DNA of 55,996 nt, taken from the IMG/VR virus record IMGVR_UViG_2880361019_000001, one strand, 5' to 3'. Source of the stretch: a virus (lineage: Duplodnaviria; Heunggongvirae; Uroviricota; Caudoviricetes). Below, one piece after another: positions 1 through 6,000 of the stretch. The position numbers were made by a program. Position 1 is the stretch's first letter, and the number at the start of each line of letters is the position of its first letter.

Positions 1-3000
1 ATGGACGAACAGTGGGGCTATGTCGGGGCTAAATCGCGCCAGCGCTGGCTGTTTTACGCGTATGACAGGCTCCGGAAGACGGTTGTTGCGCACGTATTCG
101 GTGAACGCACGATGGCGACGCTGGGGCGTCTTATGAGCCTGCTGTCACCCTTTGACGTGGTGATATGGATGACGGATGGCTGGCCGCTGTATGAATCCCG
201 CCTGAAGGGAAAGCAGCACGTAATCAGCAAGCGATATACGCAGCGAATTGAGCGGCATAACCTGAATCTGAGGCAGCACCTGGCACGGCTGGGACGGAAG
301 TCGCTGTCGTTCTCAAAATCGGTGGAGCTGCATGACAAAGTCATCGGGCATTATCTGAACATAAAACACTATCAATAAGTTGGAGTCATTACCCCCTGAG
401 CGAACAGATATTTGTTCGACACGAGATCTTGTTTCTTTTTTTATGCAGCGTTCTGGCGTGAGTTTTGAATAGTCGTCTCAATCCATTCATCAATCTCACT
501 TTCAACAAAAGCGACACACCTCTGACCTATTTTTACTCTGTCTGGAAAGTTTCCTTCCTTAATACGTTCATATAAAGTCGTGCGACTAAATCCCACTCGA
601 TTTAAAACATCAGGAACGCGGATAAATCGTTTTACGCTGGTTTCACTATTTTCTTCCATTGTCTGTCCTCTATTATTGTAAGTAATCTCTATGAGATTTC
701 GCTTTTCTCTATGTTGTTTCGACGTGAACAATGATAGCGATTTTGCTTATGGTAATTTAGGGGCGTTCATAAAAGAGTTTTATGAAAAAATAGAAGGGAG
801 GTGAATGGAAAAAGATTCGTTAATGCTGAATGCGATCACGTTCGCACGGAGCGAACGTAACCCTTTTTACTTGGCTTATTTTTTCTTATTCCTGTCGTCT
901 TCTACATGCTTTTCAACAGGGGAGTCTTTCAAGTGGTTGTTTTCCATCATGTAATCTTCAAGCGACTTCAGATAGCTCGCATCCGTCAGAAAAGCCATTG
1001 CTAACGGGTAATCTGTAGCCTTGAGCATTCCTTCATCACGATCGTTGTCGCTGTCCTCGTGAAGCAGCGAGGAAATCAGTGAAAGCGGGATTTTAATGCC
1101 GTTATCTTCTCCCCAGAAGATCAGGTCCATCATCGGGATAAGACGATATTCAATAATTTTTCTGAACGTGCTTTTGCCGAAACGATACTCTCTTGGAGCT
1201 GGAGACGTCATCTTTAGCTGTCTCTTCCATTGGGGGATCAGCACTTTTAGATGTTCAATGATCTCTTCAGTTGATGCTTCTTCCAGATGAATATCGACAG
1301 TAATACGTGAAAGATTATTAAGGGATGTCTCTTTTAGATACTCGGACAGAAATTCAGACTGGCTTAACCCAGAGAGTTCAGGCGTGGCTTCGGTTAATGC
1401 CAGCGTTTTCGCATAAAATTGCGCATGGCTTCGTGTCGTAGGATTTACTGCGTAGGTTCTGGCAAGCTCATGTCCAAGGGTAGCGGCATCACCACTGAAA
1501 AAGATTTCACCGCTGAAGATCTTGTTGCGGTAATCATCCAGCATTAATCGGTTAAAGGTCGGTATGGTGTTCCGGCTCAACAACATTCTGTAAGCCAAGA
1601 TGCGCCGCTCAACCTCAACATAAAACTGCTGTAAGGTGAGTTTCTCTATCGCCTCATAGCGTTCCACATCAAACCATGCTTCCAGTGCTTTCCTGATTTC
1701 ACTTCTTTTCATCCATCCTCCAACAATCCATTTCCTTTGATATATCTTCGTAAGCGTGCAGCAAGAACCGTATTGACGGGGATGTGTTATTCAGTCGGCA
1801 GTGCTACGCGCCAGGGGAGCAGTTCGCCGACCCGGTTTATCGGCCAGTCGGCTATGACGTCAAGGACATAGCGGAGGTAGCTTTCTGGCTCCACTCCGTT
1901 CAGTTTGCACGTCCCGATCAGGCTGTACAGCAGCGCTCCCCGCTCTCCTCCATGATCCGAACCGAAGAACAGGTAGTTTTTGCGGCCCAGACTGACCATC
2001 CGCAACGCATTTTCAGCGATGTTATTGTCCGCCTCAGCCCAGCCATCATCTGCATAGTACGTCAGCGCCGGCCACTGGTTCAGGGCGTATGCGAACGCTT
2101 TCGCCAGTTCTGAGTGTCGCGACAGGGTTTTCATCTTTTCACGCAGCCAGCTTTCCAGGGATTTCAGCAGCGGTTTCGTTTTCAACTGACGTTCGGCAAG
2201 GCGCTGCTCCGCCGTCATTCCCCTTATCTCTGCCTCGATGGCGTACAGTTCGCCGATCCGTTTCAGCGCTTCCTCCGTCAGGGCTGACGGGGTGCGAACG
2301 TGCACATCGTGGATTTTACGGCGGGCGTGAGCCCAACAGGCGGCTTCCGTTATCCGGCCATCCCGGTACAGCTCGTTGAACCCGGCGTATGCATCCGCCT
2401 GCAGTACACCACTGAACCCCGCAAGATGGGTCTGCGGATGGATGCCTTTTCTGTCCGGGCTGTAAGCGAACCACACCGCCGGCGCCAGCGTTGACCCGGC
2501 GTTACGGTCGTCACGAACGTAGGTCCATAACCGCCCGGTCTTCGTTTTCTTATTGCCTGGCAACAGCACCGGGACAGGCGTGTCATCAGCATGGAGCTTA
2601 CCGTCAGTCAGCACATAGTCCTGAAGCGCTTCTTCCAGCGGTGACAGTAGCCGGCAGCATGCATCCACCCAGCCCGACAGCAGTGAACGACTCAGCTCCA
2701 CGCCCTGGCGGCCGTACATTTCAGACTGGCGGTACAGCGGGGTGTGCTCTGCATACTTTGAGATCAGCACGCGGGCCAGCAGCCCCGGTCCTGCGATACC
2801 CCGCTCGATGGGCCGTGAAGGCGCGGGGGCCTGCACGATGGCATCGCACTGAGTACAGGCATGCTTTTCACGTACAGTCCGGATAACCCGGAAGGCGCTG
2901 CGCATCAGCTCCAGCTGTTCGGCGGCATCCTCACCCAGATAGCTCAGCGAGCCTCCACATTCCGGGCAGCATGACGCTGCCGGCAGCAGCCGTTTTTCAT

Positions 3001-6000
3001 CGCGGGGGAGTGATTCGGGGAACGGTTTGCGGGTGCGGGTTTGACGCAGCGGGCGCTGCACGGCCGGGTCGTCAACCCGACCGGTAAGGGTATCACTTTC
3101 TTTCTGAAGTGCCTTCAGGTCAGCTTCCATCTGTGCGATACGACGGGAGACTTTTTCCGAGCGGCTGCCGAAGTTCATCCGGCGCAGCTTATCCAGCTGT
3201 GCCTGCAGATGGTCTATTTCGCGTTCACGCTCGTTCAGCTTTTCCTGCAGGGCACGGTTCAGCGCCTCCTGTTCGGCAAGGAGACGTTTCAGTGCATTGA
3301 TATCGTCAGGAAGTGAGCTGCTCATACCGGGTATATTACCAGGCTCATTCAGCGTCGACCAGGATAAAGAGGCTTACAACATAGTCAGGGACGTAAGCAG
3401 TCTTTTAGGCTGCCGCCAGTCGATACCTTCCAGCAGCATCGCCAGCTGTGCCGGTGTGAGGAACACTTTGCCATCCCGGGCTGACGGCCAGGCGAAGCGG
3501 CCGCGCTCCAGCCGTTTGGTCAGCAGACACAGTCCATCGCCGGTAGACCAGAGGAGCTTTACCTGACTGCCATTACGCCCACGGAAGATAAAAACGTGAC
3601 CTGACATCGGATCGTCTTTCAGCGTCGTCTGCACCTTTGCCGCCAGGCCGTTGAAGCCGTTTCTCATATCGGTGATGCCAGCGACCAGCCAGATCTTTGT
3701 CCCTGATGGTAATGGGATCAACGTTTGAGCTCCCGTATCAGCAGGTTCAGGATATTTTCGCTGATGGCACCATTCAGACGGAGTGATCCGTGCCGGAACG
3801 TCACTTCACAGCTGATATTGAGTGATTCAGGTGTCGCAGCAGCTACAGGTTGTGACCGGGGGGAGGTTGTAGGGACAACATCTTCGGCATCAAGTGTTAT
3901 CGGGAGCAGCTCAGGCACGTTGTTTTCTGTTGTTGAAGGAGGACGTAGTTTTCCTTCGCGCCAGTACTGGCGCCACTTGAACAGCAAATTATCGTTGATC
4001 CCATGCTCACGAGCGAGTTGCGCTACGGAGATCTCTGGTCGATGCGAGAGTTCAACCATTTTGATTTTGAACTCAACGGGATAATTAGGGCTTTTTTTAC
4101 GCACTGCGGTTAATGATTTCATGGATAGCGTCCACCATATTTGGTGTCCACTATTCTCTCAGGAATTTCAGGATCTGCCAGACGGTGCTGAGACGACGCT
4201 TACATATCTTCACAGGATCCGTTTGGAACAATTGAAGTTCAACTGTTTTGTCATCAGAGACGGGGGAATGGCTAAGTTGTTGTTAAGAGTGTGAACTCGA
4301 GAGCATAAAAGTGGATGCCCGACGCGCGGCAAAATGGTAAAAAACAGCATCAGTAGTAAGAAAAATTGAGCGAGAGAAAGGAATTTTAATGCAGGGATTT
4401 ATGCATGACAAAATCAAAAATGCTTTGTAAGTGATTGATTTTGTTGAATGATTGGCGGAGAGAGAGGGATTTGAACCCTCGGTAGAGTTGCCCCTACTCC
4501 GGTTTTCGAGACCGATGATACCGAATCGCAAAATCAAAAGGTTATAAATTTTTCTTGGAATAAATGTCTTAAAAACATACACGAAAAATCAATAAATTAC
4601 GTTGAATTCAATAAGAATATTCCAAGCCTTCTTTGAGTTATTTTTGACCAGTTTGCTGTTTTTCTTTCTGATAAAATATTTCCTGATATCCCTTAACATT
4701 ACTGATACTCACGTAGTGAATTTATGAGCAATCCTAATCCATGCATGGCGTGTGGTGCCTGTTGTGCATTTTTCCGCGTCTCTTTTTACTGGGCTAAAGT
4801 AGATGATGCTGGCGAAAGGTTTATCAGAAAACCGTAGCGCCTTCTTGCATACGACGTGTCTGCGGTTTTATATAATCTCGACCAGAAACCTCTTATAAAA
4901 AGTCGATACACAAATATCATGGATAATCACCACCTTCTGACGAAGAATATCTGATGAAATTAATCGCCCCTCTCCTGAGACCATTGCGCTGGGGTAAATT
5001 TGTAACTACCTGTGTACAGCGAAGTGTCGTATAGCACGCCGTCAGGAAATGCAAGGTGTCCCCGATATCCCCGACTACGAGTCAGCAAACAAAGTGATTG
5101 GCTGGCAATCCACATCACAGAAATGGACAATGCTACTTTATAATCGAGTTTGGTAGCCACCTTGATGATCACTTTTAAAAAAAGCGTTTACACAAAATGG
5201 TAAGCAGGCTCACAGGCCCTCCCTCTAATCATCCACATTGTAAAGCTCCTTTGTTGTAAGTAAGATCCGGCACCCTAATAATATCAAAAGGATCAAAATC
5301 ATCACTGCATCCTTCCACAAGGCATTTCATTGCTCGTAGATCACCATATAGCTCTGAAGAGTGGTGCGGACATAACAGATCATAAACTTTACATTTAGAA
5401 CCTTCTTTACCTTGTCTACTTTCCTCAATTTTTACTTTCAATGAATACAGAAAAAAGAGCTCCCTGATATAACCATCCCTGTCATCTATCGTCCTCCCCT
5501 CCCTCAGTGCTCCGACAACCTCATCAGTATTTTCATTTCTCACCTCAAATACACTATTTCTCTTATCCATCAGCCCACTTACAAAAGCACTTAGCTCTTG
5601 ATAAATTTCCTCAAGCTCATTACTATTTCTGGCATTTGAGTATATAGAGGTCATAACATCAAGTTTATCTTGTAATTCAGGAGTAAGAAAATGCTTATGA
5701 TTAAGTTCACTTACTGATTCCGGAGTCGAAGGGTTACCTCTTCCTGATACATACATCCATGAATAAAGATTTGCTGAAGAGCCACTTGTTGGTAACATAT
5801 CAAAACCCCCTTAACAAATAAATATTATAAAAAATATGGCTGTATAAAAATATTATACCTTACTTAATACCACACTAATAAGATCTTGCTTTCCTCCATG
5901 ATAAGATTGCATGATTTCATGTCTACTCCATGAAATATCAGAAACATTATAAGATGATATATCTATTGGATTAAATTCATTTCTCACACGATCATATAAA

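Follow-up and report, generated by a model that had tools for sequence, protein, structure and literature searches.

The virus record IMGVR_UViG_2880361019_000001 of IMG/VR (Duplodnaviria; Heunggongvirae; Uroviricota; Caudoviricetes) is a stretch of 55,996 nucleotides, here called the window, which carries at its left end, next to a lambdoid prophage, part of an IS1 insertion sequence (IS), an alpA gene, a gene for a 278-amino-acid protein, an IS66-family element and a 3' fragment of a tRNA-Ser gene. This small region raises two questions, from which element these pieces come and whether the 278-amino-acid protein is a passenger of that element or a part of its machinery. A preliminary description of the window took the region for the remnant of a second integrative element devoid of integrase, and proposed the protein, which was assigned to no recognisable family, as a candidate for accessory or defence cargo. 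All of these features are confirmed at the positions first given for them (Table 1). Positions 394-4514 are, with high confidence, the serU-proximal end of a decayed ROD21-related serU island, which stands in tandem with the prophage, and the 278-amino-acid protein, a member of the DUF6387 family, belongs to the backbone of this island and not to its cargo.

The island end and its intact relatives

The 278-amino-acid protein does have a family. It matches the Pfam model PF19924 (DUF6387) with 181.5 bits against a cut-off of 28.9, and its residues 1-252 align to positions 1-258 of the 258 positions of the profile. The identical protein is found in the intact islands of loci L008 and L009. When the IS66-family element and one copy of its target-site duplication are removed, the window is collinear and unbroken with the empty site of Escherichia coli 04-00955 at 98.1% identity, so the element is a clean insertion, as had been proposed. 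Homology to the intact serU island begins at position 394, flush with the end of IS1.

In E. coli 04-00955 (locus L006) the alpA-DUF6387 pair forms the tRNA-proximal end of a 21.3-kb element located between serU and zinT. The order of genes in this island is DUF6387, alpA, small conserved open reading frames (ORFs), two H-NS paralogues, DUF4756, RepL, SIR2 and TIR proteins, DUF4755, the MobQ relaxase, TraD, a type IV pilin and a tyrosine integrase, and both ends carry a 14-bp direct repeat of the 3' end of the tRNA, CCCTCTCTCCGCCA. The cargo slot of serU-type islands is in the middle, which is occupied by SIR2 and TIR in 04-00955 and varies between copies. The collinearity with this island supports the view that a second integrative element once entered tRNA-Ser to the left of the prophage. 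The serU island of uropathogenic E. coli (UPEC), found in strains CFT073 and 536, has 22.5 kb and encodes Hfp/H-NSB and H-NST (PMC7074111); it is related to ROD21, but has its own integrase and insertion site (PMC7074111).

The alpA product is 93-94% identical to AlpA of the intact serU islands and matches the PHROGs family "excisionase and transcriptional regulator" with an E-value of 1e-12. It is a small protein with a Phage_AlpA domain, encoded in an integrase-bearing element, as is typical of AlpA-family recombination directionality factors (RDFs). It is presumably the RDF (excisionase) of the island, an AlpA-family winged-helix protein and the counterpart of SEN1998 of ROD21, which has RDF features and binds both att regions in electrophoretic mobility shift assays (PMC8844411). 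The AlpA-like regulator noticed earlier is real at 72 amino acids, and the 96-amino-acid ORF that starts at a TTG codon is an over-extension of it.

The host genome was looked up with the exact 278-amino-acid protein as query, which led to CP034212.1 (locus L007). This genome is 100% identical to the window over positions 1-11712, the part that was compared, and shows the order zinT, att core, integrase, 473 bp, IS1, alpA, DUF6387, IS66, serU fragment and nleF/nleH prophage. The integrase is intact, has 408 amino acids and contains Arm-DNA-bind_3, Phage_int_M and Phage_integrase domains; the source genome possesses a serU-type P4-family integrase, which lies outside the window. The statement that no integrase is present is correct inside the window, but the intact gene stands 452 bp past IS1 in CP034212.1, and its apparent lack is due to where the window was cut.

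Of 5,426 complete E. coli genomes, 522 carry the alpA-DUF6387 region, in every case on the chromosome. This distribution makes the region accessory, and not contiguous core chromosome, which the preliminary description had named as a finding that would speak against an integrative element. The island part (window 400-1749) is 97.9% identical to E. coli copies, whereas the core flank from msrQ to hchA (L007 15200-20800) reaches at most 86.6% identity to any of the 5,426 genomes. The low identity of the core places the host in a non-coli Escherichia, probably E. albertii, and the difference between island and core indicates a recent exchange of the island between species.

Nested attachment sites and loss of the island middle

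The limits of the tRNA-Ser fragment are fixed by homology breakpoints. Homology to an uninterrupted E. coli serU locus ends exactly at 4514, and homology to genomes that carry only the prophage begins exactly at 4453. The 48-nt core of the fragment occurs once in the window and in 0 of 100 shuffles, and ARAGORN does not call the fragment because it is truncated. Compared with E. coli serU, a single compensatory pair of the T-stem differs (GAGGG/CCCTC instead of GGGGG/CCCCC). The distal island repeat, past the integrase (L007 about 13931-13946), carries the matching T, and both att cores are identical over 14-16 nt. The island att core is formed by the last 14-16 nt of the serU fragment (4453-4466/4468), and the repeat CTCTCTCTCCGCCA(AT) is found at window 4453-4468 on the minus strand and again past the integrase (L007 about 13931).

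The repeat common to both island ends in genomes that have only the island is 14 nt long. E. coli E110019 and O145:H28 RM12761 (loci L003 and L004), which contain the nleF/nleH prophage and no island, show the same 62 nt at the prophage end, followed directly by native chromosome (CTTTATCAATGAC), and in E110019 an intact serU stands at the opposite end of the prophage, beside the phage integrase. It is therefore the prophage that sets the length of 62 nt. The 62-nt repeat is the attachment repeat of the right-hand nleF/nleH lambdoid prophage, and the att core of the island is nested in its last 14-16 nt. The earlier interpretation of the fragment as an attachment-site repeat stands, with the correction, given by the junction sequences, that the 62-nt length is that of the prophage and that the repeat of the island itself has 14-16 nt. 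The locus shows cleanly how attachment sites can be nested in a single tRNA gene, that of the phage with 62 nt and that of the island with 14-16 nt.

The source genome lacks about 19 kb from the middle of the island. None of hfp/hnsT, mobQ, traD and the type IV pilin gene lies between alpA and the integrase, where only IS1 and the 473 bp are present. The remainder of IS1 lies to the left of the window; the whole element, with both inverted repeats, covers L007 11320-12087, and no target-site duplication is found at its flanks, which read CGCTCAGGG on one side and ATAATTGTG on the other. The absent duplication and the missing 19 kb together point to an IS1-associated deletion. The copy in the window is a deletion remnant, not a complete serU island. 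The two att cores have survived intact, as have the integrase and alpA, and the mobilisation genes and the cargo are gone, so the erosion driven by insertion sequences spares here exactly the recombination genes; excision of the relic of about 6.7 kb is conceivable.

The 473-bp segment (L007 12088-12560, left of the window) has no match in the other island loci fetched by then (L001-L028) and holds the first 28 codons of a coiled-coil-like ORF severed by IS1. This ORF remnant is probably the last trace of the island's own cargo or variable region.

We infer, as the simplest though unproven history, that the island came first and the prophage later. An IS1-associated deletion of about 19 kb would have left the order integrase, 473 bp, IS1, alpA and DUF6387; the ISEc22-like IS66 element inserted 37 bp upstream of DUF6387; and the nleF/nleH lambdoid prophage would have entered serU, shifting the old 62-nt tRNA 3' end and the island off the functional tRNA. 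Two points count against this history. The mechanism of the deletion is read only from the absent duplication, and an adjacent deletion by IS1 or a recombination between two IS1 copies could each have produced it. The order of island and prophage is not forced, because the 14-nt core is present in both tRNA copies.

DUF6387 and the integrase-AlpA module

DUF6387 is a family of about 402 clusters at 50% identity in an exhaustive profile search, nearly all of them with 260-340 amino acids, and its most conserved positions are W13, F14, Y19, R37, D196 and W200. The AlphaFold2 model, built from a 118-sequence alignment, is all-alpha, with a predicted local distance difference test (pLDDT) score of 89.5 and a predicted template-modelling (pTM) score of 0.82, and finds no fold match. 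Profile searches against PDB sequences give nothing, the best match being rSAMD9 with an E-value of 0.12, which was taken as noise. No family of PADLOC-DB 2.0 matches at E <= 1, NCBIfam yields noise only, and the match in PHROGs is to a family of unknown function. A tblastn search of 50,697 phage-collection records finds DUF6387 in no bona fide phage, its single match being a Salmonella chromosomal contig. On plasmids, tblastn gives seven matches; one of them is an EARL-like insertion in a Klebsiella plasmid, and at least one is in a record as large as a chromosome. The literature found on DUF6387, PF19924 and SEN1999, the DUF6387 gene of ROD21, consists of mentions in gene tables, with no functional study.

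A genome-wide locus scan with alignment A1 gave 10 loci; the deep alignment A2 is too little conserved for such a scan. DUF6387 is followed by alpA on the same strand, about 130-260 bp apart, in all Escherichia serU loci, in islands of Klebsiella, Citrobacter youngae and Mangrovibacter that are linked to tRNA-Ser(UGA), in Kluyvera and Erwinia loci, in a Serratia island, where the pair is listed, and on the Klebsiella plasmid; the contig from Phytobacter is too short to show it. On this plasmid the integrase is divergent from DUF6387-alpA and immediately adjacent to it, as expected of a circular serU island. The islands of Salmonella enterica (L040-L042, 8744-11336) have a DUF6387 gene 78% identical to that of the window, followed by alpA, and an integrase 80% identical to the serU-island one, which stands 33 nt upstream of DUF6387 on the same strand. 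The segment of these Salmonella islands that contains the integrase and att is inverted relative to the serU islands, and no intact tRNA gene is nearby.

Distant members of the family, with 23-30% identity, retain the arrangement. The order tRNA, P4-type integrase, DUF6387 and alpA is seen in L025/L027, L028 (tRNA-Gly), L031, L035 and L037 (tRNA-Leu), and in L030 and L031 the integrase and DUF6387 genes abut or overlap by 4 nt. The synteny of homologues beside alpA and P4-type integrases, a check suggested at the outset, is thus found down to 23-30% identity, and it shows that, on the circular element, the genes for integrase, DUF6387 and AlpA are neighbours. Where att separates the integrase from DUF6387, as in serU and EARL islands, integration leaves the two at opposite ends.

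This context suggests how DUF6387 might work. The integrase would recombine the two att cores and AlpA would serve as its directionality factor, while DUF6387, the first gene of the DUF6387-alpA pair, would be the third backbone component of the module, adjoining the integrase and attP in the circular form. From the family context, DUF6387 may act together with the Int/AlpA recombination module, in an accessory or a regulatory capacity, an assignment that is favoured here and is tentative. A wider proposal, held slightly more cautiously, is that DUF6387 could be an unrecognised third component of P4-type integrase/AlpA modules, an all-alpha protein with a fold unlike solved structures, which would act with or on Int/AlpA, for instance by setting the timing or the direction of recombination. 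The proposal would hold for tRNA-linked islands at large, those of the ROD21/ICEKp258.2 type as well as distant elements, metagenomic and other bacterial ones, that have the order int-DUF6387-alpA.

Several observations weigh against a role in recombination. A minority of DUF6387 members has no integrase and alpA nearby, and the loci L034 and L030 lack alpA downstream of DUF6387. In L032/L033 (2146-4875; 25% identity) the gene is flanked by those for an ankyrin-repeat protein and for an orphan D12-class DNA methyltransferase, with a TraW-like gene nearby and neither integrase nor alpA, which is another context, that of a conjugative element. The protein is acidic (isoelectric point, pI, 5.6; family median 5.56), unlike a classical DNA-binding protein, and only its first 70 residues are basic. 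Neither experiment nor homology gives DUF6387 a role.

Two other functions were considered for the protein, and they rank below the partnership with the integrase and AlpA, the maintenance of the excised circle first and defence or cargo last. DUF6387 could act in the replication, partition or stabilisation of the circle after excision and not as a partner of the recombinase, which is unlikely. Its upstream region is the att arm, so that circularisation could alter its expression; in the serU configuration the gene is co-directional with serU and no terminator-like site separates them; and some members are found in conjugative contexts without integrase. The islands, however, already encode RepL/replicase-type proteins, DUF6387 resembles no known Rep or Par protein, and its tight coupling, at times an overlap, is with integrase and alpA and not with replication genes.

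That DUF6387 is accessory or defence cargo of an AlpA-associated island, the proposal of the preliminary description, is improbable. It draws on the missing fold match and the unassigned function, on the location of the gene at the end of the element, a frequent place of morons and defence genes, on the SIR2 and TIR defence cargo of intact relatives, and on one distant member in a conjugative context, whose neighbours, an ankyrin protein and an orphan Dam-type methyltransferase, recall the surroundings of establishment or anti-defence genes. The proposal fails because DUF6387 is invariant and linked to recombination genes. Wherever the context is readable, the pair DUF6387-alpA recurs in the same place, in serU/tRNA-Ser islands, ICEKp258.2, the Serratia island, the Klebsiella plasmid and most distant relatives while the middle varies; the linkage to integrase and alpA persists at 23-30% identity, with translational coupling to the integrase in some cases; and PADLOC offers no match. 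Published accounts also treat the gene as conserved backbone (PMC6035254, PMC10763509). Most ROD21-like (EARL) islands have, along with a putative RDF gene, a gene of 843 bp whose function is unknown (PMC6035254), and the end opposite the integrase is marked by the RDF gene and then this conserved gene. The gene table of ICEKp258.2 closes with an AlpA-family regulator and a DUF6387 family protein as its last two genes (PMC10763509).

That alpA and DUF6387 belong to the lambdoid prophage beside them, with the tRNA fragment as an internal scar, is hardly credible, even though the two genes adjoin the prophage and near-identical DUF6387 genes occur in viral-labelled contigs of IMG/VR, since the prophage end in E110019 and O145:H28 stops at the 62-nt fragment before native chromosome, without alpA and DUF6387, 04-00955 has both genes without any prophage, and DUF6387 is absent from the genuine phage genomes among the 50,697 records.

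The type of island, the terminal gene pair and the Pfam family are already known, and the window holds a routine case of such an island, decayed and placed in tandem with a prophage at a tRNA gene that is a hotspot. The small new observation is the int-DUF6387-alpA neighbourhood across distant elements, together with the lack of a fold match.

Features of the window and comparison with known systems

The features of the island end are given in Table 1.

Table 1. Features at the left end of the window, with positions in the window, strand and the evidence for each
Feature	Positions	Strand	Evidence
IS1, right part (insB' 1-378; terminal inverted repeat ends at 393)	1-393	+	Pfam DDE_Tnp_IS1
Island DNA downstream of alpA	394-440	-	Joined-sequence BLAST against E. 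coli 04-00955
alpA, 72 amino acids	441-659	-	Pfam Phage_AlpA, E 1.6e-18
DUF6387 gene, 278 amino acids, intact	876-1712	-	Pfam PF19924, E 2.9e-53
Left 8-bp target-site duplication, ATATCTTC	1742-1749		Matched against empty site
ISEc22-like IS66-family element, 2,454 bp	1750-4203	-	99.8% identity to annotated ISEc22 copies
tnpC of ISEc22-like element	1787-3325	-	Pfam DDE_Tnp_IS66
tnpB of ISEc22-like element	3374-3721	-	Pfam TnpB_IS66
tnpA of ISEc22-like element	3718-4122	-	Pfam HTH_Tnp_1
Right 8-bp target-site duplication, ATATCTTC	4204-4211		Sequence match
AT-rich (38% GC) non-coding island end between att core and DUF6387	4212-4452	-	Collinear with L006 1259-1500
tRNA-Ser(CGA) serU 3' fragment, 62 nt, anticodon stem to CCGCCA	4453-4514	-	Homology breakpoints

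The DUF6387 gene has a ribosome-binding site, GGAGGA, 4 nt 5' of its ATG. The ISEc22-like element, which has the three genes tnpA-tnpB-tnpC, GTAAGCG termini and an 8-bp duplication, as expected of the ISEc22 type of the IS66 family, is located 37 bp upstream of the DUF6387 start codon, is transcribed towards DUF6387 and splits the gene from its native upstream region of about 250 bp. The AT-rich stretch beyond the element is presumably the att arm together with the native upstream region of DUF6387-alpA. It contains a sigma-70-like match, TTGTCA-17-TAAAAT, at about 4383-4411 on the minus strand, which is a weak consensus match not enriched over shuffles, and a promoter and terminator scan upstream of DUF6387 found no terminator-like site. 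E. coli O103 ML775 (L001, 12048-15768) has an IS66-family insertion of independent origin, ISEc8, which parts alpA from DUF6387, and its island also adjoins an effector-carrying prophage; the same short module has thus been struck twice by IS66-family elements.

At the prophage end next to the island (4724-6688) stand a fragment of a YkgJ-like gene, nleF, which is intact (5229-5798, minus strand), and an ORF for an NleH-type kinase (5984-6688), which has 234 amino acids from a GTG codon and looks truncated; in related E. coli prophages this kinase gene has a frameshift. An IS21-family element (ISEc12-like, 9427-11729), with istA of 513 and istB of 249 amino acids, lies in the tail-fibre/lom region, and a tRNA cluster with Arg(TCT), Arg(TCG) and Met(CAT) is found at 37134-37383 on the minus strand. 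The window does not contain the intact copy that pairs with the 62-nt repeat. At its right edge (54977-55996, plus strand) it encodes an integrase of 339 amino acids, and other genomes (L010-L013) have exactly this protein next to yccA and a 3' fragment of serT. In nucleotides, this integrase is only about 65% identical to the one that E110019 has in its nleF/nleH prophage at serU. Because of these two observations, the prophage of the window may be of hybrid origin, or may have arisen by inversion between a serU-sited and a serT-sited prophage.

Among known systems, the CP4-57 segment intA-yfjH-alpA of E. coli K-12 also has a P4-family integrase with an Arm-DNA-bind_3 domain and an AlpA protein beside a tRNA/tmRNA gene, with one gene between them. 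The gene yfjH, however, is encoded on the other strand and matches no Pfam family, which rules it out as a member of DUF6387, and the likeness is positional only.

The closest system is the serU island. The copy studied here shares with it the insertion at the 3' end of serU, bounded by a short direct repeat, the integrase, which in the source genome is 98.5% identical to the 04-00955 copy, and alpA and DUF6387 at 97.9% nucleotide identity. It differs in that it keeps the two ends only, with hfp, hnsT, mobQ, traD, the pilin genes, repL and the cargo deleted; in that it has two insertion sequences, and a prophage between the island and the functional serU; and in its host, which is a non-coli Escherichia.

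DUF6387 travels with integrase and AlpA in islands of medical relevance, such as ROD21 and ICEKp258.2 of K. pneumoniae ST258. Excision of ROD21 affects the virulence of Salmonella. Control of excision by DUF6387, if it exists, would fill a gap in the account of how such islands move. The EARL islands (ROD21, IE3, ICEKp258.2) have an AlpA-type RDF and a gene of about 843 bp, DUF6387, at the end opposite the integrase, and they share MobQ, TraD, a type IV pilin, H-NS homologues and DUF4755/DUF4756 with the intact serU relatives. Of the marks of EARL islands given by Pina-Iturbe et al. (2018), the RDF gene followed by a gene of about 843 bp at the distal end is found in the window, where the DUF6387 gene has 837 nt, and the insertion in Asn-tRNA with an adjoining EARL-type integrase is not. 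EARL islands target Asn-tRNA and use another integrase (PMC7074111), whereas the island of the window is inserted in serU, with DUF6387 as the neighbour of the tRNA.

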